This document shows, piece after piece, positions 7,867 to 63,260 of a DNA stretch of 64,000 nucleotides (positions are counted from its first letter, which is position 1; each line of letters opens with the position of its first letter). A model generated the notes under the pieces. That model did not search any database. It was not told the DNA's origin and worked only from the letters and a program-made list of their open reading frames with translations. Source of the DNA: Eledone cirrhosa (taxonomy: Eukaryota); the NCBI GenBank assembly GCA_964016885.1, contig OZ024740.1, positions 379,936,001 through 380,000,000 of the forward strand. Direction: 5' to 3'. The position numbers and the translations under genes were made by a program.

Positions 7867-9576
7867 TCAGTTGGCAACAAGTAAATGATGGAATTGGTTG
7901 TTATATGCAGGATTGCCTATGTTGCTCAGAGCTTCTATGAAAGACTTACGACTGTCTGGAACTAAAGGGTTGTTTGGACTTAAAGTGTTGGGCATAAAAT
8001 CAGTGAAGGGCAAGCTGCCATGAGCTGGAGACAGTTGGAAAGGGTTTGAAAGTGGGGGCTGGTAAAAATCCCGAAGAGTCAAACCAGTTGATGATGGAGA
8101 GGGCAGAGGTGGTTGGGGAGATTGTTGGTGAGGTTGCGTTTGTGAGTTTCCCTGTTGTAAGAGAGTCTGATTGAGTTGTTGGTGGTGAGGTAGAGGAGAA
8201 GTTGCTGACACATCATGAGAGGATGCTGGTGAGAGCAGATTTGACTGAGAAGCAACTATTGGTTTCTGATTCATAGATGCTATATATCTATGATGTGGAT
8301 GCTGAACTTGCTGTTGTTGTGGCTGTTGATGGTGTTGATCAAATAAAAAATCAATCCTTGGATCACGTGGGGAAAGAGATCTGGGTCGACTGGCCAATGT
8401 TGTGCCTGGAGCTGATGAACCTGGGCTCGGGTGGCCAAAACCCATACCAACTCGTAGTGCAGAATTAGCTAAAGTTGGGGAAACACCAACTGTAGGTACA
8501 CTTGATGAGGGTCCAGGTCCAATTAGACTACCACCAGTAGGGGTTACTGGTGAAGACTGGAGGGATGAACCAGCAGCTCTTTGTCGGAAGTAATTTCGGA
8601 ATTCAATAGGAGATAATCTAGTTGGACGTTTAACCTGGCTCTTCAGTTTGGTTGAGCCAAACTTAGTCTGTGCAAATGATGAGGCTGTGAATTGTGGAGA
8701 TGTTAGATTTGGTTTGGTTAAAAAAGATGTAGGCCGTGAGGCAATGACAGGTGTAGCATTGGTGATGACTGGACTAGACAGCTGACAAGATGGCACAGTT
8801 GCAGAAGGAGAAACAGGGGCTGCAGCAGTTGAAATGTTAGTATTTGAATTGTTTGCATTGTTACTGGCGGTGTTATTACTATTGTTGTTGTTGTTGTCAG
8901 ATACAGACAAATTATTTATGGCAACAACAGTAGTAGAAACAGCTTCAGGAGATGGAGCATGAACAACAGTGACTGTTGTTGAGCCAGGAGCTTGGTTATT
9001 AACAGTGGACAAATTAGTACTTGCAGTTGAATTGAAGAGAGTAGTGGACGGGGAGGCAGCTGTACTCCAGCCAGCTGGTGAAGTTGGGGATGATGGAGAT
9101 AGACTCAAACTGCTCAATGAAGATGATACTGAATCTATTGGCTTAAAGCATTGAGCTTCTGGATTAAAACCTTTATTTGCTGCCTGTACCTCATGATCAA
9201 CTGTATCAAGAAGTTCATCATCTTTCTTGTCACTATATAAGATTTTGACGGTGCCTTTCTCACTAAGGCGGTATGAGACCTCAGACGGATCAATCCAAAG
9301 GGTTAAATCTGCTGGTAGATAGCTTCTGACTTCACCAATCTCTAAGCCACTTCCATAAACAGCTTTCTCAATATCAGGATCAACTTTTTCACCATTAACT
9401 CGGATGCATCGGTAAGCTGAGCCCTTATTGGGTCGCTCAGGATACCAGTGACCATTAAATTTTGTTTTCATACGTTTTTCCAGTTCCTGACCAAACATAT
9501 CCACACGTCGCCGGGGAAGTTTGTTGTAGAGATAAGAAATTATGAAATTAAGAGCCACGGATACTTCAACATGCAT
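7867..9576 (-). CDS. Tob: Tob/BTG-family antiproliferative protein (Tob1/Tob2-like; CAF1/CCR4-NOT and PABP adaptor), 569 aa, single coding exon
   Basis: N-terminal BTG/APRO domain (LNFIISYLYNKLPRRRV...GHWYPERPNKGSAYRCI...LPADLTLWIDPSEVSYRL), PAM2 motif GFNPEAQCFKPI, Tob-specific FTASSFAQTKFGSTKLK, Q/P/S-rich tail ending LLVAN; AAAC-ATG start context; tandem TGA TAA stops. Confidence 0.97.
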   Translation of the reverse strand: MHVEVSVALNFIISYLYNKLPRRRVDMFGQELEKRMKTKFNGHWYPERPNKGSAYRCIRVNGEKVDPDIEKAVYGSGLEIGEVRSYLPADLTLWIDPSEVSYRLSEKGTVKILYSDKKDDELLDTVDHEVQAANKGFNPEAQCFKPIDSVSSSLSSLSLSPSSPTSPAGWSTAASPSTTLFNSTASTNLSTVNNQAPGSTTVTVVHAPSPEAVSTTVVAINNLSVSDNNNNNSNNTASNNANNSNTNISTAAAPVSPSATVPSCQLSSPVITNATPVIASRPTSFLTKPNLTSPQFTASSFAQTKFGSTKLKSQVKRPTRLSPIEFRNYFRQRAAGSSLQSSPVTPTGGSLIGPGPSSSVPTVGVSPTLANSALRVGMGFGHPSPGSSAPGTTLASRPRSLSPRDPRIDFLFDQHHQQPQQQQVQHPHHRYIASMNQKPIVASQSNLLSPASSHDVSATSPLPHHQQLNQTLLQQGNSQTQPHQQSPQPPLPSPSSTGLTLRDFYQPPLSNPFQLSPAHGSLPFTDFMPNTLSPNNPLVPDSRKSFIEALSNIGNPAYNNQFHHLLVAN

Positions 9577-9706
9577 GTTTTAGCTTCTTAGAAACAATGT
9601 CAAAGATGCAATGTAATAGCTTGTAGTCAAGATTTTTTCTGTTATTTTTCAGGTTGCTTCTTTGGCAAGTTAAATACAATTTTCACAAAGGTTTTATCAC
9701 GTTCTC

Positions 9707-17440: not shown

Positions 17441-17471
<31 letters not shown>

Positions 17472-17472
<1 letters not shown>

Positions 17473-17748
17473 AGTAGTAACACGACAGTTAGTTCACCAT
17501 ATCAAGAACAAATGTTTCACCTTAAGCAGATCTTCAGCTCGAAATAAGTCTGGCTATATGGATGCGTATTCATACGGTTGTTTTTCCTTTTCCGTACAGC
17601 CAAACTTAGTCCGAGCTGAAGATCCGCATAAGGTGAAACATTTGTTCTCGGTATGGTGAACTAACTGTCATGTTACTACTTCTACCAAACTCATCCCATG
17701 GACTGAGTGTTCTACTACTACGGATATAACCCTCCAGTGTTCCACCTT
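17472..17748 (+). mobile_element. Fold-back element in (TA)n with hammerhead-like motif; probable Penelope-like pseudo-LTR remnant
   Basis: ~90-bp imperfect inverted arms (17472-17562, 17591-17681) plus a unique tail; (TA)n on both sides; CTGAAGA...GAAAC core in each arm. Confidence 0.7.
17611..17651 (+). ncRNA. Minimal type-I hammerhead ribozyme-like motif (inverted copy on minus strand at 17502-17542)
   Basis: CCGAG-CTGAAGA-TCC gcataa GGT-GAAACA tt TGT-T-CTCGG: helix I CCGAG/CTCGG, conserved core, short helix II, helix III ACA/TGT, GUU site. Confidence 0.6.
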
Positions 17749-23650: not shown

Positions 23651-24040
23651 GCACACACACACACACACATATATACATACATATATATATATATATAACA
23701 CTTGTCTACATATTAATGTCTGTATATATTTAGGCATATACCTATCTACATATCAGTGTTCAGTATTGTTCAAGCAATTTCATAAACAAAGATTATTATA
23801 AGTAGCAGTTTGTGTTTGAAAATAGACCAACATGAACCTTTTGCTACCAAATTGAAACATGTTTTTATAAGGATTGGTTCTAATATACTAAGTTAATGAT
23901 TTAATATGATATTAAATAGGACTCTTACCTTTAGGGTAAATATGTTGAAGTAGTATATAGTCTAAATTAAAATATAGGGAAACATGTAAACCTCAAAAGT
24001 AACATAATCTACTACTTATCTGTCATACTTGATCCTGTTT

Positions 24041-24750
24041 GTGTGTACTCTAGTCCTACAGCTATCAAAACAGACAGTGGCACATGGACATCTGTGTATT
24101 CTAGTCCTACACTATCAAAATAGCTGTCCATATGCCACTGTGTGTGTACTCTAGTCCTACAGCTATCAACATAGCTGTCCATGTACCACTGTGTGTGTAC
24201 TCTAATCCTGCAGCTATCAACACAGCTGTCCATATGCCACTGTGTGTACTCTTATCCTGCAGCTATCAACACATCTGTCCATATGCCACTGCCTGTGTAC
24301 TCTAGTCCTACAGCTATCAACGCAGCTATTCATATGCCACTGTGTGTACTCTAATCCTGCAGCTATCAACACAGCTGTCCATGTGCCATTATGTGTAAAT
24401 CCTGCCAAGGTTAACTTGGCCTTTCATTCTTACAGGGTTGATAAAATAAAGCACCAGTAATGCACTGGGGTATTGCTGGCATTGTACCAAGAGTAGAAAC
24501 ACTTATGTGTACTCCTACATCTATCTACATATCTGTTCATGTGCCAGTCTTTGTACTATTGTCATACAGCTATCAACACAGTTGTCCATGTGCCACTGTG
24601 TACTCTAGTCCTATATCTATCCACACTGCTGACCATGAACCCCTATCTTTGTACTCTAGTCCTACAGCCCTCCACACAGCTGACCATGTGCCAATGTCTG
24701 TGTACTCTAGTTCTGCATCTATATCCACAGTTATCCATGTGCCATTGTCT
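24041..24750. repeat. ~50-bp minisatellite (about 7 units before and 4-5 degenerate units after a SINE insertion)
   Basis: Unit GTGTGTACTCTAGTCCTACAGCTATCAACACAGCTGTCCATATGCCACT repeated in tandem. Confidence 0.9.
24398..24502 (+). mobile_element. 5'-truncated Deu/Nin-like SINE inserted in the minisatellite, with 9-bp TSD
   Basis: TTATGTGTA at 24389-24397 and 24503-24511 flanks the SINE body. Confidence 0.85.
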
Positions 24751-26305
24751 ATGTTTAATTCAATCATTCAACTGTCTACATACAGCAGTCATATATGTTT
24801 CCACACACGAGCATGTTTACTGTATTCATTTATCCATTTACACATGTGCAAATGTCTTTACTTCAGTTATGTATCTATACCCACCAAGATATCTTTATAC
24901 TCCAGTCACATCTGTCCACACACCAATGTATCTTTGTACTTCACTTTTTACTCTACCTACATCTATATTTATGTTTTACTCGGATCCTTTTTTTTATTTT
25001 TATGTGATCTTCCTGTAAATTCCTCTATAGTTCCAATCCCTGTGTATGTACAGAAACTTGTACATAGCTCAATTTTTATTTGCAATCATATGCTACTGAT
25101 GTAGCAAAGGAACCAGATATAGATATAAAAACGAATTAAACTCACACATATGACCAATGCTACTTTATATCAATGTGGGGGTGGGGGTCGCAACTAACAA
25201 AGTGATGAAATAAAAATAGATGACAAAACACAAAGGCTATTTCCTTTAGTTTCAGCCATGTAGAATTATGGAATAAACTAACACCCAATGAATGTTACAG
25301 ATGCATCATTCTTCAATGTTTTCGAGTTGTAGATTAATAGAATAATGTAGAACTAGAGATCTGTAGGGCAGCTTTAACCAGTTCTCTTGCCAGTTAAGTG
25401 AATTGAGCTTCAATGTACAGTATTGACCTTACCACTCTGAAGGCCAAATAAAGGTCATGAGTTTTGTCTCTTCTTTAATTAAATTGAACAAAACAATAGA
25501 AATGGTTGTGTAGACCAACTCATAGCTAAGTCAAAATGTTATTACGAGTAAGAAGGTGGTAGAAACAGCAAAGTTCTGGAGTGAAGGCCATATGTTCTGA
25601 ATTCAAATGCTCTAAGGGTCGACTGTCTTTCACAACTTCAAGGTCGATAAAACAAATAACAGGTATCTATTGAAGTTATTTCAATCACCCATTCATTTCC
25701 CACAAGAATTTCCACCAGAATTGCTTTGTAACTATTGTTTCAATTATTATTATAGATCAAGGTCATATGAGACAAAACAAATACTAGCAAGCTAGATAAG
25801 ATGTCTGATATATTTTAATTCCTTGCTTCATTCCCAACAGCAACTGTTCCAAGGGAATTCAATTTTGGCCTTTCATTTCTCTGAGGGAAGAAACAGCCGA
25901 CAACAACGACAACAATGACGAGAGCAACAACAACAGCAACAAACAAATAGAAAGAAAGACCGTACTAATGATATACTGGAAATAATTTAACTTTAACGAT
26001 GATATAAATTCCCACATACAAAATTCACTTTACATATGTAGTCAAAGAAAATTACAAAAATGTATTTTAATCAACTATACACATGCATATATTAAAGCTT
26101 AATTAGGTTGCTAAGTTATTGAAAAAATAAATAAACATATCAATATGTAATGAATATATGTTTAGAAATAAATTGTATTTTGCTATTTTTTTTTGTTTAA
26201 AAGGTAAACAAAAAACAATAAAAGTAACAAACAATTTTATTTCCTTGGGAGAGATAATGTAAACGGACACCAGAGTGAGAGTAAAAGAGAGAAAGAGAGG
26301 GGGAC

Positions 26306-30458: not shown

Positions 30459-30499
<41 letters not shown>

Positions 30500-31517
30500 T
30501 ATATATATATAATATATATATATATATAGGGAGTATGTAAAAGAGTGCACTAACATATATAACATAATATATATATATCATATACATATGTATATATATA
30601 TATATTATATACATATATATATATATATATTATATACATATATATATATATTATATACATATATATATATTATATACATATATATATATATATATTATAT
30701 ACATATATATATATTATACATATATATATATATTATATACATATATATATTTATATATATTATATACATATATATATTATATACATATATATATATTATA
30801 TACATATATATATATATATATATTATATACATATATATATTATATACATATATATATATTATATACATATATATATATATTATATACATATATATATTAT
30901 ATATATATATATATATTATATACATATATATATAATATTATATACATATATATATAAATATTATATACATATATATATATATATTATATATATATATATA
31001 TATTATGTACATATATATATATATATTATATACATATATATATATATATATTATATACATATATATATATTGTATACATATATATATATATATTATATAC
31101 ATATATATATATATATTATATACATATATATATATATATTATATACATATATATATATATATATTATATACATATATATATATATTATATACATATATAT
31201 ATATATATATTATATACATATATATATATATATATTATATACATATATATATATATATTATATACATATATATATATATATATTATATACATATATATAT
31301 ATATATATATTATATACATATATATATATATATTATATACATATATAATATTATATACATATATACATACATATATATATATACATATATATATACATAT
31401 ATACATATATATATACATATATATATATACATATATATATATATTATATACATATATATATATATTATATACATATATATATATATTATATACATATATA
31501 TTATATACATATATATA

Positions 31518-31692
<175 letters not shown>

Positions 31693-32089
31693 TATATACA
31701 TATATATATATATATTATATACATTAAATACATATATATATATATATTATATACATTAAATACATATATATATATATATATTATATACATATATATATAT
31801 ATATATTATATACATATATATATATATATTATATACATTAAATACATATATATATATATATTATATACATTAAATACATATATATATATATATATTATAT
31901 ACATATATATATATATATTATATACATTAAATACATATATATCTATATATATATATATATATATTATATACATTATATACATATATATATATTATATACA
32001 TATATTATATACATATATATATATTATATACATATATTATATACATTATATTATATACATTATATACATATATATATATTTTATACATA

Positions 32090-32128
<39 letters not shown>

Positions 32129-32134
32129 GATATA

Positions 32135-32179
<45 letters not shown>

Positions 32180-32491
32180 ATATTATATAGATATATATAT
32201 ATATATATATTATATACATATATATATATATTATATACATATATATATTATATACATATATATATATATTATATACATATATATATATATATTATGTACA
32301 TATATATATATATTATATACATATATATATATATTATATACATATATATATATATATTATGTACATATATATATATATTATATACACATATATATATATT
32401 ATATACACATATATATATATTATATACATATATATATATATTATATTATATACATATATATATTATATTATATACATATATATATATATAT

Positions 32492-32559
<68 letters not shown>

Positions 32560-32744
32560 CATATATATAAATATATATATATATATACATATATATAAAT
32601 ATATATATATATATACATATATATAAATATATATATTATATACATATATATATATATATATATATTATATACATATATATATATATATATGTATTATATA
32701 CATATATATATATGTATTATATACATATATATATATATATGTAT

Positions 32745-32775
<31 letters not shown>

Positions 32776-32883
32776 TATATACATATATATATATATATAT
32801 ATATTATATACATATATATATATATATATGTATTATATACATATATATATATGTATTATATACATATATATATATATATGTAT

Positions 32884-32914
<31 letters not shown>

Positions 32915-33005
32915 TATATACATATATATATATATCTTTTATATACATATATATATATATCTTTTATATACATATATATATTATATATATATATATATTA
33001 TATAC

Positions 33006-33043
<38 letters not shown>

Positions 33044-33068
33044 TATATACATATATATATATATATAT

Positions 33069-33139
<71 letters not shown>

Positions 33140-33171
33140 TATATACATATTATATATATTATATACATTAT

Positions 33172-33215
<44 letters not shown>

Positions 33216-33216
33216 C

Positions 33217-33760
33217 ACGGAAAAAATGAAACGATATTTCATTTCCCACTCTTAGTACGGCTGTTACTTAAATATAAGTATGTACACGTACATACATATA
33301 TGTATACCGACGTACAGTAGTATGTATATATATATATACATACATGCACACATATATATATGCACGTATGGATTCACCGAACATTTATTATAATGCTCGG
33401 TGTGTTTGTAAACAAACATCCCGTATTAAGCCGTAGTGTCTAGCAACCACCGTTGCTCGTTTGTTCAACACTGACAAAGGAACGCTGTACTAGTTTCAAG
33501 CTTGTTAGCTATCGTCAGCAACGTATACCTTCCTGCCAGATTGTTGAACGTATATACTTACCTTATGCATATTAACGGCTGAGTAGCCCATTTTGCATAT
33601 CGAGTTGCTTAATCGGCCGGGTGCACCGAAAACGATAACGGAAAAAATGAAACGATATTTAATTTCCCACTCTTAGTACGGCTGTTACTTAAATATAAGT
33701 ATGTACACGTACATACATATATGTATACCGACGTATGTATGTACGTGTACATACTTATAT
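33217..33760 (-). mobile_element. Retrozyme-like / non-autonomous Penelope-like element: partial tandem (421-bp period), terminal inversion, hammerhead ribozyme
   Basis: 98-bp direct repeats (33217-33314, 33638-33735), 27-bp inverted repeat (33693-33719, 33734-33760), CpG-rich interior, (TA)n flanks. Confidence 0.75.
33477..33531 (-). ncRNA. Minimal type-I hammerhead ribozyme
   Basis: Minus strand AAGGTAT-ACGTTG-CTGACGA-TAGCT aaca AGCTT-GAAAC-TA-GTA-CAGCGT-TCCTT: helix I ACGTTG/CAGCGT plus AAGG/CCTT, intact CUGANGA and GAAA core, helix II AGCT/AGCT, palindromic ACTAGT helix III, GUA cleavage triplet. Confidence 0.8.
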
Positions 33761-33856
33761 ATATTATATACATATATACATATATTATATACATATATAT
33801 ATATATTATATACATATATATATTATATACATATATATATATATAATATACATATA

Positions 33857-33905
<49 letters not shown>

Positions 33906-33992
33906 ATATATTATATACATATATATATATTATATATATATATTATATACATATATATACATATATATATTATATATATATATTATATATAT

Positions 33993-34026
<34 letters not shown>

Positions 34027-34115
34027 ATATATTATATATATAATATATTATATATATATATATAATATATTATATATATAATATATTATATATATATATA
34101 TATATATTATATATA

Positions 34116-34162
<47 letters not shown>

Positions 34163-34236
34163 ATATATTATATATATAATATATTATATATATAATATAT
34201 TATATATATATATATAATATATTATGTATAATATAT

Positions 34237-34281
<45 letters not shown>

Positions 34282-34382
34282 TAATATATATATATATATA
34301 ATATATATATATATAATTTATATATATATAATATATATAATATATATATATATTATATATATATATAATTTATATATATATA

Positions 34383-34414
<32 letters not shown>

Positions 34415-34465
34415 ATATATATAATATATATATATATATATAATATATATGTATATAATTTATAT

Positions 34466-34510
<45 letters not shown>

Positions 34511-34526
34511 TGTATATAATTTATAT

Positions 34527-34569
<43 letters not shown>

Positions 34570-34600
34570 TATATAATATATATATATATATAATTTATAT

Positions 34601-34634
<34 letters not shown>

Positions 34635-34687
34635 ATATATATATATAATATATATATATATAATTTATATATATATATATAATATAT

Positions 34688-34719
<32 letters not shown>

Positions 34720-34768
34720 ATATATATATATAATATATATATATAATTTATATATATATATAATATAT

Positions 34769-34880
<112 letters not shown>

Positions 34881-34980
34881 ATATATATATATAATATATA
34901 TATATATAATTTATATATATATATATAATATATATATATATATAATATATATATATATATAATATATATAATATATATAT

Positions 34981-35014
<34 letters not shown>

Positions 35015-35057
35015 ATATATATGTAATATATATATATATATAATATATATATATAAT

Positions 35058-35129
<72 letters not shown>

Positions 35130-35135
35130 ATATAT

Positions 35136-35168
<33 letters not shown>

Positions 35169-35280
35169 ATATATAATATATATATAATATATAATATATA
35201 TATAATATATAATAATATATATATATATATAATATATAATATATAAATATATAATATATATATATATATATATTATATAT

Positions 35281-35325
<45 letters not shown>

Positions 35326-35340
35326 ATAATATATATATAT

Positions 35341-35386
<46 letters not shown>

Positions 35387-35549
35387 ATATATATTATATA
35401 TATATATTATATATTATATATATATATATTATATATATATTATATATATATATATATATATAAATTATATATATATATATTATATATATATATATATTAT
35501 ATATATATATATATATTATATATAGATATATATATATAAATTATATATA

Positions 35550-35598
<49 letters not shown>

Positions 35599-35639
35599 TA
35601 TATATATATATATATATATTATAATATATATTATATATA

Positions 35640-35707
<68 letters not shown>

Positions 35708-35710
35708 ATA

Positions 35711-35833
<123 letters not shown>

Positions 35834-35893
35834 ATATATAATATATATATATATATATTATATATATATATATATATTATATATATATATAAT

Positions 35894-36011
<118 letters not shown>

Positions 36012-36046
36012 ATATATATATTATATATATATATTATATATATATG

Positions 36047-36113
<67 letters not shown>

Positions 36114-36114
36114 G

Positions 36115-36168
<54 letters not shown>

Positions 36169-36263
36169 ATATATATATATTATATATATTATATATATAT
36201 ATTATATATATTATATATATATATATTATATATATTATATATATATATATTATATATATTATA

Positions 36264-36308
<45 letters not shown>

Positions 36309-36407
36309 ATAATATATATTATATATATATATTATATATATTATATATATATATATATTATATATATTATATATATATATTATATTATATATATTATATA
36401 TATATAT

Positions 36408-36439
<32 letters not shown>

Positions 36440-36484
36440 TACATATATATATATATTATATATTATATATATATATATTATATT

Positions 36485-36521
<37 letters not shown>

Positions 36522-36616
36522 TTATATTATATATATATATATTATATATATATTATATTTATATTATATATAATTATATATATTATATATAATATATATT
36601 ATATTATATATATATA

Positions 36617-36816
36617 NNNNNNNNNNNNNNNNNNNNNNNNNNNNNNNNNNNNNNNNNNNNNNNNNNNNNNNNNNNNNNNNNNNNNNNNNNNNNNNNNNNN
36701 NNNNNNNNNNNNNNNNNNNNNNNNNNNNNNNNNNNNNNNNNNNNNNNNNNNNNNNNNNNNNNNNNNNNNNNNNNNNNNNNNNNNNNNNNNNNNNNNNNNN
36801 NNNNNNNNNNNNNNNN
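36617..36816. other. Assembly gap (200 N)
   Basis: Run of N. Confidence 0.99.
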
Positions 36817-36825
36817 TATATAATA

Positions 36826-36916
<91 letters not shown>

Positions 36917-36939
36917 TATATATAATATATTATATATAT

Positions 36940-37095
<156 letters not shown>

Positions 37096-37118
37096 TATAT
37101 ATATATATATATTATATA

Positions 37119-37149
<31 letters not shown>

Positions 37150-37164
37150 AATTATATATATATA

Positions 37165-37196
<32 letters not shown>

Positions 37197-37247
37197 ATAT
37201 ATATAATATATATATATATATATAATATATATGTATATAATTTATAT

Positions 37248-37292
<45 letters not shown>

Positions 37293-37308
37293 TGTATATA
37301 ATTTATAT

Positions 37309-37351
<43 letters not shown>

Positions 37352-37380
37352 TATATAATATATATATATATAATTTATAT

Positions 37381-37423
<43 letters not shown>

Positions 37424-37468
37424 TATATAATATATATATATATAATTTATATATATATTATAATATAT

Positions 37469-37500
<32 letters not shown>

Positions 37501-37551
37501 ATATATATATATAATATATATATATATAATTTATATATATATATAATATAT

Positions 37552-37661
<110 letters not shown>

Positions 37662-37766
37662 ATATATATATATAATATATATATATATAATTTATATATA
37701 TATATATAATATATATATATATATATAATATATATATATATATATAATATATATATAATATTATAT

Positions 37767-37800
<34 letters not shown>

Positions 37801-37841
37801 ATATATATGTAATATATATATATATATAATATATATATAAT

Positions 37842-37913
<72 letters not shown>

Positions 37914-37919
37914 ATATAT

Positions 37920-37952
<33 letters not shown>

Positions 37953-38064
37953 ATATATAATATATATATAATATATAATATATATATAATATATAATATA
38001 TATATATATATATATAATATATAATATATAAATATATAATATATATATATATATTATTATATAT

Positions 38065-38109
<45 letters not shown>

Positions 38110-38122
38110 ATAATATATATAT

Positions 38123-38168
<46 letters not shown>

Positions 38169-38423
38169 ATATATATTATATATATATATTATATATTATA
38201 TATATATATATTATATATATATATTATATATATATATATATATATAAATTATATATATATATATTATATATATATATATATTATATATATATATATATAT
38301 TATATATAGATATATATATATAAATTATATATATATATATTATATATATATATATATTATATATATATATATTATATATATTATATATATATATATATAT
38401 ATTATAAATATATATTATATATA

Positions 38424-38493
<70 letters not shown>

Positions 38494-38494
38494 A

Positions 38495-38624
<130 letters not shown>

Positions 38625-38693
38625 ATATAATATATATATATATATATTATATATATATATATATATTATATATATATATAATATATATATATA

Positions 38694-38741
<48 letters not shown>

Positions 38742-38752
38742 ATATATATTAT

Positions 38753-38806
<54 letters not shown>

Positions 38807-38835
38807 ATATTATATATATATATTATATATATATG

Positions 38836-38881
<46 letters not shown>

Positions 38882-38901
38882 ATATATATTATATATATAT
38901 G

Positions 38902-38955
<54 letters not shown>

Positions 38956-39050
38956 ATATATATATATTATATATATTATATATATATATTATATATATTA
39001 TATATATATATATTATATATATTATATATATATATATTATATATATTATA

Positions 39051-39095
<45 letters not shown>

Positions 39096-39191
39096 ATAAT
39101 ATATATTATATATATATATTATATATATTATATATATATATATATTATATATATTATATATATATATATTATATATATTATATATATATAT

Positions 39192-39223
<32 letters not shown>

Positions 39224-39513
39224 TACATATATAATATATTATATATATATTATATATATATTATATTTATATTATATATATATATATTATATATATATTA
39301 TATTATATTATATATATATATATTATATATATATTATATTTATATTATATATATATATATTATATATATATTATATTTATATTATGTATATAATGTATAA
39401 TATATATTATATATATATTATATATATATATTATAAATATATATATATTATATATATATATTATATATATTATATATATATATTATATATATATATTATA
39501 TATATTATATATA

Positions 39514-39564
<51 letters not shown>

Positions 39565-39698
39565 ATATTATATATATTATATATTATATATATATTATAT
39601 ATATATTATATATATATATATTATATATATATTATATATTATATATATATTATATATATATTTTATATATATATTATATATATATTTTATATATATAT

Positions 39699-39730
<32 letters not shown>

Positions 39731-39864
39731 TTTATATATATATTATATATATATATATATTATATATATTATATATATTATATATATATATTATATATAT
39801 ATATATATTATATATATATATATTATATATATATTTTATATATATATTATATATATATGTTATA

Positions 39865-39917
<53 letters not shown>

Positions 39918-40070
39918 ATATATATTATATATATATTTTATATATATATTATATATATATATATATTATATATATTATATATATTATATATATATATTAT
40001 ATATATATATATATTATATATATATATATTATATATATATTTTATATATATATTATATATATATGTTATA

Positions 40071-40113
<43 letters not shown>

Positions 40114-40120
40114 ATATATA

Positions 40121-40166
<46 letters not shown>

Positions 40167-40189
40167 ATAATATACATATATATATATAA

Positions 40190-40221
<32 letters not shown>

Positions 40222-40723
40222 TTTATATATATATTATATATATATATTATAGATATATATTATATATATATTATATATATATATTATATACATAATATAT
40301 ATATTATATATATAATATATATATATAATATATATATTATATATATAATATATATATTATATATATATTATATATATAATATATATATTATATATATATT
40401 ATATATATATATTATATATAATATATATATATTATATATATATATATTATTATATATATTATAAATATATTATATATATATAATATTATATATATAATAT
40501 ATATATATTATATATAGAATATATATATATATATTATATATATATTATATTATATATATATTATATTATATATATATTATATATATATATATATATAATA
40601 AATTTGAAGACTAAAATCCAAAGAGGGCTCGATAAGGATAAATATATATCAAATATATATATTATATATATATTATTTATATATATTATATATATATATA
40701 TATATTATATATATTATATATAT

Positions 40724-40755
<32 letters not shown>

Positions 40756-40933
40756 TATATATATATTATATATATATATATTATAAATATATATTATATA
40801 TATATATATTATATATATATATATTATATATATATATATATATATTATATATACATTATATATATATATATATTATATATATATATATTATATATATATA
40901 TATTATATATATATATATTATATATATATATAT

Positions 40934-40964
<31 letters not shown>

Positions 40965-42631
40965 CATTATATATATATATATATTATATATATATATTAT
41001 ATATATATTTTATATATATATATATTATATATATATATATTATATATATATATTATATATATATATTATATATATATATTATATATATATATTATATATA
41101 TATATATATTTTATATATATATATATTATATATATTATATATATATTATATATATATATATATTATATATATTATATGTATATATTATATAATATATATA
41201 TATATAATATATATATAATATATATATATATAATATATATTATATATATATATTATATATATATATTATATATATAATATATATATTATATATATAATAT
41301 ATATATATATATTTTATATATATATATATTATATATATTATATATATATTATATATATATATATATATTATATATATTATATGTATATATTATATATATT
41401 ATATGTATATAGTATAGATATATATTATATATATTATATATATATATTATATATATAATATATATATTATATATATAATATATATATATAATATATATAT
41501 ATTATATATAATATATATATATTATATATATATATATCATATATATAATATATATATTATATATATATATATTATATATATATTATATATATATATATTA
41601 TATATATATATTATATATATATATATTATATATTTATTATATATATATATTATATATATAATATATATATATATTATATATATAATATATATATATATAT
41701 TATATATATATATTATGTATATATTATATTATATATATATTATATATATATATAGTAATAATAATAAATTTGAAGACTAATGTCCAAAGAGGGCTCGATA
41801 AGGATAAATATATATCAAATATATATATTATATATATATTATATATATATATAATATATATATTATATATATATTATATATATATATTATATATATTATA
41901 TATATATATTATATATATATATATATTATATATATATATTATACATATATATATTATATATATATATTATACATATATATAATATATATATATATTATAT
42001 ATATATATATATATTATATATATATATTATACATATATATATTATATATATTTATTATACATATATATAATATATATATATATATATTATATATATATAT
42101 ATTATATATATATATATATATTATATATGTTATATATATATATATATTATATATATATATATATTATATATATATATATATTATATATGTTATATATATA
42201 TATATATTATATATATATATATATTATATATATATATATATTATATATATATATATATTATATATGTTATATATATATATATATTATATATATATATATA
42301 TTATATATATATATATTATATATATATATATATTATATATATATTATATATATATTATATACATATTATATATATATATATTATATACATATTATATATA
42401 TATATTATATATATATATATATTATATACATATTATATATATATATATATTATATACATATTATATATATATATATATTATATACATATTATATATATAT
42501 ATATATTATATACATATTATATATATATATTATATACATATTATATATATATATATTATATACATATTATATATATATATATTATATACATATTATATAT
42601 ATATATTATATACATTATATACATATATATA

Positions 42632-42677
<46 letters not shown>

Positions 42678-42716
42678 CATATATATATATATATATATTA
42701 TATACATATATATATA

Positions 42717-42814
<98 letters not shown>

Positions 42815-42821
42815 TATATAT

Positions 42822-42907
<86 letters not shown>

Positions 42908-42969
42908 ATATATATTATATACATATATATATATATATATATATTATATACATATATATATATATATAT

Positions 42970-43012
<43 letters not shown>

Positions 43013-43151
43013 CATATTATATATATATATTATATACATATTATATATATATATATTATATACATATTATATATATATATATTATATACATATATATATA
43101 TATATTATATACATATATATATATATATTATATACATATATATATATATAT

Positions 43152-43187
<36 letters not shown>

Positions 43188-43286
43188 ACATATATATATA
43201 TATATATTATATACATATATATATATATATATATTATATACATATATATATATATATATATTATATACATATATATATATATATAT

Positions 43287-43380
<94 letters not shown>

Positions 43381-43982
43381 TATATACATATATATATATA
43401 TATATTATATACATATATATATATATTTATTATATACATATATATATATATTATATACATATATATATATATTATATACATTATATACATATATATATAT
43501 ATATATTATATACATATATATATATATTATATACATATTATATATATATATATCTATTATATACATATAATATATATATATATATATTATATACATATAT
43601 ATATATATATATTATATACATATATATATATATATATATTATATACATATATATATATATATATTATATACATATATATATATATTATATACATATATAT
43701 ATATTATATACAGAAATATATATATATATATTATATACATATATATATATATTATATACATATATATATATATATATATATTATATACATATATATATAT
43801 ATTATATACATATATATATATATATATATTATATACATATATATATATATATATATTATATACATATATATATATATATATATTATATACATATATATAT
43901 ATTATATACATATATATATATTATATACATATATATATATATTATATACATATATATATATATATTATATATATATATATAT

Positions 43983-44018
<36 letters not shown>

Positions 44019-44287
44019 ACATATATATATATATTATATACATATATATATATATTATATACATATATATATATATATATATATTATATACATATATATA
44101 TATATTATATACATATATATATATATTATATACATATATATATATATTATATACACATATATACATTATACATATATATATATATATTATATACATATTA
44201 TATATATATTATATACATATATATATATTATATACATATTATATATATACTATATACATATATATATATATATATTATATACATGAA

Positions 44288-61814: not shown

Positions 61815-62113
61815 ATTTGATAGGTTTCATATGTATGTATATATATTTGATAGGTTTCATATGTATGTATATATATTTGATAGGTTTCATATGTATGTAT
61901 ATATATTTGATAGGTTTCATATGTATATATATATATTTGATAGGTTTCATATGTATATATATATATTTGATAGGTTTCATATATATGTATATATATTTGA
62001 TAGGTTTCATATGTATGTATATATATTTGATAGGTTTCATATGTATGTATATATATTTGATAGGTTTCATATGTATGTATATATATTTGATAGGTTTCAT
62101 ATGTATGTATATA
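61815..62113. repeat. 30-bp minisatellite, 10 copies
   Basis: ATTTGATAGGTTTCATATGTATGTATATAT in exact 30-bp phase. Confidence 0.95.
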
Positions 62114-62324: not shown

Positions 62325-63260
62325 CCCCAAAATACTAAATCTTCTAATATAAAGTATAGTAACCCTCAAAAAACTACTCATCATAAGACTATAATAAATA
62401 TTAATAATAAAACTCCTAATAAAAAAGATAAAACACCTAAATCTACAAATATAACTAAAAATAGTTGTGGTGAGATCATTAACATTATTCCTCCTAGTAA
62501 AAATCATGATACAACATATAAAAATAATAAAAATAATAAACAACATAGAAACCGTAATAGACGAGTTACTTGGTATAATGCTCCTTTTAATTTACAAGTT
62601 AAGGATAATATTGCTAAAAAATTTTTTTATATCCTTGAGAAAAACTTCCCGCCAAACCACAAATACCATCAAATCTTAAATAGGTCTACAGTTAAATTCT
62701 CATATTCTACAACAAATAACATAAAACAAAATATAAGTGCATATAATGCATATAAATGTAAGAAAACTATAAGTATACCACCAGTACATCAAATTAACAA
62801 TAATATCTCCTCAAATACAGAATTAACGAAAGGATGTAACTGTAGAAACAAAACAAACTGCCCATTAAAAGGGAATTGTCTTGTTAACAACATAGTCTAT
62901 AAATGTAATGTTAAAACTAAAGATTCTATTTGCTCATATATAGGAGCTACCTCTAACAATTTTAAGACAAGGTATAATACCCACAAACATAGCTTTAAAA
63001 ATGCCGCACTGGCTAATACAACATCTCTAGCAGAAAAAATCAATAGTTATAAAAATAAAAATATAAAATATGATTTGACCTGGGGTGTGCTCAAAAGAGC
63101 CACCCCTTATCAAAATAATAGAAAGGAATGTAGATTATGTTCCCAAGAACTATTTGAAATAATGAAGTCTAGGGATATCTTATTAAATAAAAGACAGGAA
63201 TTAATTATATCGTGTAATCATAAACTAAAAAAAACATTTAAATATTATAAACCTAATTAA
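62325..63260 (+). mobile_element. 5'-truncated Penelope-like retroelement: open 311-codon frame with RT C-terminal/linker region and GIY-YIG endonuclease
   Basis: Stop-free from the (TA)n junction: RRVTWYNAPFN...FPPNHKYHQILNRSTVKFSYS...CNCRNKTNCPLKGNC...IVYKC...YIGATSNNFKTRYNTHKHSF...CRLCSQE...LLNKRQELIISCNH; in frame with the listed 63075-63260 ORF. Confidence 0.9.

Follow-up and report, generated by a model that had tools for sequence, protein, structure and literature searches.

Results

Structure of the island

Embedded in a TA-rich array (30461-44281) of the 64-kb stretch of Eledone cirrhosa DNA analysed here (the window) is a 544-bp non-coding island, 33217-33760, that an earlier note had read as a retrozyme-like insertion. 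What kind of repeat is this island, and what enzyme could have placed it there?

The island consists of 1.23 head-to-tail units of 421 bp and a short inverted piece. The direct repeats seen in the earlier note, 33217-33314 and 33638-33735, are 98 bp each at a spacing of 421 bp and agree at 97 of 98 positions, the sole mismatch being C at 33240 and A at 33661. The 27-bp inversion is exact, with 33734-33760 the reverse complement of 33693-33719 (27/27), and overlaps the end of the direct repeat by 2 bases. The description as CpG-rich also holds, given 30 CpG in 544 bases (observed/expected 1.66, GC 36.6%) and a ratio of 0.16-1.03 in the 13 four-kb blocks of the window that the array does not dominate. 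The reported absence of an ORF was confirmed: the longest ATG-started frame has 51 amino acids and the longest stop-to-stop frame 55. A 70-protein profile for the reverse transcriptase and GIY-YIG ORF of Hydra-clade Penelope-like elements (PLEs) found no match in the six frames of the island. Searches for a tRNA head on the unit and for a poly(A) end at the island were negative, as was the search for a second copy of the unit within the 64-kb window. Since both flanks are (TA)n, a target-site duplication would be hidden, and none is visible there. The features are:

33217-33637, minus strand: full 421-bp unit, circularly permuted; its boundary is the end of the island insertion, and the joint 33637->33217 occurs in all four contig runs
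33638-33735, minus strand: 98-bp 5'-truncated upstream copy, a partial tandem, pLTR-like (97/98 with 33217-33314)
33734-33760, plus strand: 27-bp inverted 5'-truncated copy, ending against (TA)n at the inner end site, the equivalent of 33272
33217-33271, minus strand: 55-bp one-sided tail, from the inner end site 33272 to the outer end 33217; putative second reverse-transcription start
33482-33524, minus strand: predicted type I hammerhead, from sequence and fold and from the variant pattern in contigs
33463-33549, minus strand: predicted long helix I extension with internal loops, enclosing the ribozyme (fold prediction)
33272-33369, minus strand: long, AT-rich predicted hairpin that ends at the inner end site (fold; 33278-33307 is also kept in a diverged subfamily)
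30461-44281, unstranded: host (TA)n-rich array, the insertion target (sequence composition)

The family in public contigs

One unit (33217-33637) was aligned to four of the 24 listed runs (X1, X4, X5 and X6), all of them assembled contigs, with 33316-33362 left out as repeat; no RNA run is among the 24. Of the 17.1 million X1 contigs, 10,325 match the unit: 2111 at 99% identity or more, 3747 at 95-99%, 3677 at 90-95% and 790 below 90%. Depth there sums to 1.1-2.4 million over most bins of the unit, although summed contig depth is no copy number; allowing for up to 31-fold overcounting and a single-copy depth of 20-150, the bounds run from a few hundred to about 100,000 copies, and we estimate that genomic copies number in the thousands.

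The head-to-tail joint is carried in X1 by 9 contigs (depth 979), with at least 11 variant forms, those listed summing to 2129; junctions found in one contig, which are inversion joints, have depths of 6-24. Four inversion joints other than the island's occur in X1, and the island's own inversion junction is not among the joints listed. Of the aligned sequence in X1, the share that continues into unlike stretches is 0. No contig spans the whole unit, and copies with two ribozymes are beyond the reach of these contigs. The earlier note had set two outcomes against its own proposal, a single-copy sequence and copies always attached to a reverse transcriptase ORF as solo pLTRs. The contig counts over four identity bands, the joint in every run and the lack of run-on together mean that the sequence is neither single-copy nor mainly an ORF-attached pLTR. 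It is a high-copy, protein-free 421-bp repeat family, probably non-autonomous.

Both 98-bp repeats of the island carry C at 33308/33729, where A makes up 91% of X1 depth, and this shared minority base indicates that the two came from one template. The island copy is young: its two repeats differ at one position, and it departs from the family majority at about four. A contig in X4 (record 12) has the ribozyme block and the end-site block 33278-33307 at a distance of 164 nt (147 in the island), separated by an unalignable spacer, and an X1 loose end at 33460 carries a similar motif. To judge from these sequences, the two represent a diverged subfamily, likewise with a short unit.

X4, X5 and X6 contribute 4, 35 and 4 contigs at depths of 3-235, against a depth of 1-2 million in X1. 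These contigs may be carry-over, and we do not count the three runs as other hosts. Near-identical parts of the unit occur in 20 of the 24 listed runs under many organism labels. Horizontal transfer was considered, but carry-over or mixed samples would account for this equally well, and we make no claim of transfer. Odd joints in X6 were also set aside as evidence: they come from 151-nt records, include one loose end starting with GATC and look like library chimeras. Exact-pattern scans of metagenome contigs and viral contigs gave no match, nor did a Hydra-protein scan of the viral contigs.

A predicted hammerhead ribozyme

A custom descriptor finds one type I hammerhead in the island, on the minus strand at 33524-33482, and matched none of 5000 dinucleotide shuffles. 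Helix I has 6 bp and is followed by the core CUGACGA; helix II, 4 bp long and capped by a tetraloop, has a U.U pair at its base and is followed by GAAA, and helix III is made of the palindrome ACUAGU (2 bp and a 2-nt loop). Cleavage is predicted after GUA, between 33488 and 33487. The earlier note's single hammerhead with a palindromic helix III stands, but its label of minimal does not. Minimal PLE hammerheads have a helix II of 7-8 bp, a helix I of 4-5 bp and an unpaired base before G10.1-C11.1 (PMC4209133); with its 4-bp helix II, 6-bp helix I and U.U base the island ribozyme lies outside that definition, and its three helices make it canonical in the terms of the same paper. The putative ribozyme resembles those of Hydra-clade PLEs.

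Rfam returned no match at gathering score in the 64-kb window; its 64 weak matches near the island include no hammerhead family and are for the most part noise from miRNA-like hairpins. The predicted 421-nt circle is 67% paired (z -6.0 against 60 shuffles). A ribozyme-compatible fold is predicted 1.4 kcal/mol above the free minimum, with helix I extending to 33549/33463.

Twenty positions of the unit vary at 5% or more of X1 depth. Five of them fall among the 43 ribozyme positions and 15 among about 331 elsewhere, so the ribozyme overall is no less variable than the rest of the unit. The ribozyme variants are at N7 (17%), N17 (6%), loop II (65%), 33485 (55%) and 33521 (22% + 22%); in hammerhead numbering, N7 and N17 are positions that tolerate change. 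Positions 33485 and 33521 are partners of one helix I pair, which changes from G.U to U.G or U-A, and both partner changes occur together in one X4 contig. The catalytic core has no common variant; core sparing alone has a p of 0.21, and the chance of the ribozyme variant pattern as a whole is about 0.2%, as computed after the pattern had been seen. The pattern suggests that the catalytic fold is under selection, and the 421-bp unit is predicted to carry a self-cleaving hammerhead motif.

Two other readings of the sequence around the ribozyme were rejected. A spliceosomal intron (donor-like 33561, acceptor-like 33471, minus strand) would lack its GT (33560) in 42% of X1 depth, and none of the joints removes it. 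A short frame whose YSxxN is reminiscent of Hydra N-termini was considered as an ORF relic; the profile gives it no support, and only the island copy has its ATG.

Ends of the copies

Loose ends lie just before 33272/33273 in three of the four runs, next to TA-rich sequence in 32 X1 contigs, microsatellite in 3 X5 contigs and AT-rich sequence in 1 X4 contig. The inverted piece of the island ends at the same inner site, 33693 being 33272 + 421, and the main island copy runs 55 bases past it, to 33217. This outer end is the edge of the aligned stretch, so the contigs bear on the inner end only. The loose ends listed lead into microsatellite or diverged element sequence, and none of those listed falls at the cut site, 33488/33487. 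As copies pass through the cut site in this way, the template would have been uncut or religated.

Partial tandems, inverted 5'-truncated copies and one-sided tails mark PLE insertions (PMC8557442), and such tails have been explained by two internal starts of reverse transcription (PMC11167929). The partial tandem and the inverted 5'-truncated copy are both present at the island, with other inversion joints in X1, and the tail measures 55 bp as against the 30-40 bp described for PLEs. The island shows unusually clear PLE insertion scars.

The candidate PLE partner

A U.U pair at the base of helix II occurs in 14 of 26 Hydra-clade ribozyme rows, ten of which also have a 4-bp helix II and a tetraloop, and (TA)n is the preferred target of 26 of 27 Hydra families, which include one from Octopus (PMC8557442). 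Since an axolotl retrozyme also has the U.U base and Naiads also target (TA)n, these two characters are not diagnostic of Hydra. The ribozyme of Hydra-1_Obim differs from that of the island (PMC8557442). No sequence match of the unit to published Hydra families was found in the consulted portions of that paper, and six short unit motifs brought up no related element in the consulted portions of its supplement. Alignments of the unit to the Hydra 3' end in the window, and to a second insertion at 17469-17747, were at noise level for the best local scores. The cut site of the island is 216 nt from the end site, whereas Hydra ribozyme windows start about 85-190 nt from consensus ends; one published Hydra consensus, compared by eye, has a similar short motif and then about 56 bases to its end. 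We regard a Hydra-clade PLE as the partner only as a lead, slightly favoured over its not being so.

The Hydra-type end in the window is a 5'-truncated plus-strand copy at 62478-63260, with a thumb, a CxCX5C linker, CxxC, CxH and a GIY-YIG-like domain. It matches P0002 at 41% and the profile with an E of 5e-66, with no Pfam match. It starts after (CT)n(TA)n and is open for 334 codons from the microsatellite; the custom descriptor finds no ribozyme downstream of it.

A second ribozyme-bearing insertion

Between two (TA)n tracts at 17469-17747, 16 kb from the island, lies a hammerhead-bearing Penelope-type insertion that is unrelated to the island and has the same layout of ends. Its 94-bp inverted arms (88%) enclose a 28-bp spacer, and the direct copy has a 63-bp tail. 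Ribozymes at 17616 (plus) and 17537 (minus) both have the U.U base, differences between the two in helix I preserve pairing, and the cut site is 38 nt from the inner end. This insertion looks like a Hydra-type pLTR stump.

Discussion

Origin and spread of the island family

In our judgement the island is quite probably a copy of a retrozyme-like, non-autonomous 421-bp family, inserted in the TA microsatellite by the enzyme of a PLE, probably of the Hydra clade. The earlier note had proposed that a PLE reverse transcriptase copies a non-autonomous family from RNA that is circular or tandem; abundance, joints and ends support this. A retrozyme in the strict sense would in addition have tandem units with two ribozymes, transcription and a circular RNA, and the ribozyme type named in the note, minimal, has to give way to canonical or Hydra-type.

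In this scenario, a source locus of two or more units would be transcribed, and paired hammerheads would excise a 421-nt monomer, to be closed into a circle by ligation. A PLE protein would then nick (TA)n, and reverse transcription would start at two sites on the RNA, 55 nt apart. One cDNA would proceed through the ribozyme and past a full unit (519 nt in the island), while the other would stop after 27 nt, and the two would be joined tail to tail over the 2-base overlap. An enzyme reading a circle would have to do so for more than one turn. The island itself has a single ribozyme; no circle could be released from it, and for circle production it would be a dead end. Cutting without religation would leave progeny missing half the ribozyme, so a conserved catalytic fold may be easiest to maintain through dimers that yield circles.

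We see the circle and an uncut linear tandem transcript as about equally good candidates for the template. That the family is a true circular-RNA retrozyme, with thousands of copies documenting base by base how a Hydra-clade Penelope enzyme carries out rolling-circle reverse transcription from two fixed starts, seems to us somewhat unlikely; if true, it would provide direct insertion-scar evidence on the enzyme that moves an animal retrozyme, in a ribozyme family that would rank among the most abundant of an octopod genome.

Alternative explanations

There is a considerable chance, although short of even, that the same PLE parasite spreads as the pLTR model has it, from linear partial-tandem transcripts that stay uncut, with the ribozyme either a passenger that rarely cuts or a fold that binds protein. 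On the nature of the family this alternative agrees with the explanation given above, from which it departs only in the excision and circularization step. A 1.23-unit copy can template a product longer than one unit, ends do not pile up at the cut site among the loose ends listed, and the contigs, none of which spans a whole unit, include no dimer. For an Anolis PLE in vitro, ribozyme cleavage is not needed, and ribozyme mutants left insertion unchanged (PMC11167929); in Xenopus, eight of nine retrozyme dimers are reported without cleavage. Two points speak against uncut transcripts: the distribution of variants suggests that the catalytic fold is selected for, and cutting would pay only if circles form, half of the ribozyme being lost otherwise.

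The remaining alternatives concern the family itself. Scattered hammerheads usually stem from pLTRs of autonomous PLEs, and such a pLTR, solo or truncated at its 5' end and derived from an abundant element, would have the same end signatures, as in the stump-like insertion at 17469-17747, and the short contigs, with 167 further loose ends, leave room for a rare coding parent. We think this very improbable, as all four runs show the sequence closing back on itself after 421 bp, X1 has no run-on, the loose ends listed are microsatellite or diverged element, and the island has no coding relic. It is very improbable that the island is a rare, internally deleted by-product of an autonomous PLE and not part of a self-spreading lineage: the arrangement (end site, tail, short spacer, ribozyme) is what a PLE stripped of its ORF would show, yet the junctions have many diverged forms, depth is far beyond one locus, a diverged short-unit subfamily exists and no ORF relic is seen in the island. 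An origin by deletion is compatible with a PLE-mobilized family; rarity is not. TA arrays are prone to fold-back events, and the inversion could be a repair scar in an unstable array around a satellite monomer, or a SINE-like repeat, that spread by recombination or by a LINE; that no partner was found for the unit fits this too. We give it little credence, because the inversion stops at the site at which (TA)n begins in other copies, further inversion joints are present, tRNA head and poly(A) end are both missing, and the unrelated ribozyme insertion at a distance of 16 kb is arranged in the same way.

Comparison with known systems

On the evidence of its sequence, we classify the family as a retrozyme-like non-autonomous PLE family. 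With animal non-LTR retrozymes (Cervera and de la Pena 2020, PMC7229834; Li, Clavereau and Pollet 2026, bioRxiv 10.64898/2026.07.22.740005) it shares a non-coding unit in the range of 150-450 bp with GC under 50%, a canonical-sized type I hammerhead with an intact core, head-to-tail junctions, high copy number and a predicted circle that pairs with itself and still allows the ribozyme to fold. The axolotl HHR_Amex2 has the same U.U base of helix II, and mussel retrozyme units measure 350-390 bp. Unlike these, the island has one ribozyme, no visible target-site duplication and a cephalopod host. Li et al. (2026) count as active two consecutive units, each with a ribozyme, whereas the locus has 1.23 units and one ribozyme. 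The PLE-type inversion, tail and (TA)n targeting seen at the island are not described for retrozymes in the consulted portions of PMC7229834 and Li et al. (2026).

Hydra-clade PLEs, including Hydra-1_Obim (Craig et al. 2021, PMC8557442), resemble the island in the (TA)n target, the U.U base and the 4-bp helix II with tetraloop, and PLEs in general in the partial tandem, the inverted 5'-truncated copy and the one-sided tail. In contrast to Hydra elements, the island has no ORF, is built on 421 bp rather than 2-3 kb, and has its ribozyme further from the 3' end and a shorter helix III. The non-autonomous Chlamys PLEs, such as MRC1, are also non-coding PLE dependants with pLTRs and head-to-tail insertions; however, their host is a green alga, their clade is mostly without hammerheads, and they are known to resemble their autonomous partner at its 3' end (PMC8557442). 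Poseidon PAc of Anolis has a one-sided tail from two start sites and an AT-rich target (Frangieh et al. 2024, PMC11167929). It is autonomous, unlike the island family, for which the two-start mechanism is proposed by analogy and the tail is that of 55 bp.

PLE mobilization of animal retrozymes was proposed from common ribozymes and co-occurrence (PMC7229834), and frog pLTR homology backs it (Li et al. 2026). The class to which the family would belong, that of animal non-LTR retrozymes derived from PLEs, has already been published. In the literature covered, with Repbase, Dfam and subscription papers outside the scope, we found no description of an octopus hammerhead ribozyme, an octopus non-autonomous Penelope or a cephalopod retrozyme, and none of a retrozyme that combines an inverted end, a microsatellite and a tail; the family may sit unclassified in repeat libraries. 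To this the family adds the inversion, the fixed end site, the tail and the TA target, across a great many copies that are young. These end signatures offer a basis for deciding between a circular and a linear template and for naming the partner. A large hammerhead family is thereby placed in an octopod, and no concept is changed.

Other features of the window

The 13.8-kb TA-rich array contains N gaps and strand-skewed C/G sub-blocks, and parts of it may be misassembled. It also holds two near-identical 38-bp non-TA islands, 40606-40643 and 41772-41809, 1166 bp apart. Minisatellites lie at 24040-24754 (51-bp) and 61815-62113 (30-bp). A single-frame Tob/BTG gene on the minus strand at 7870-9579 places the host among the octopods: its protein has 90% identity to one of Octopus bimaculoides, 85% to one of Argonauta and 57% to one of a cuttlefish.
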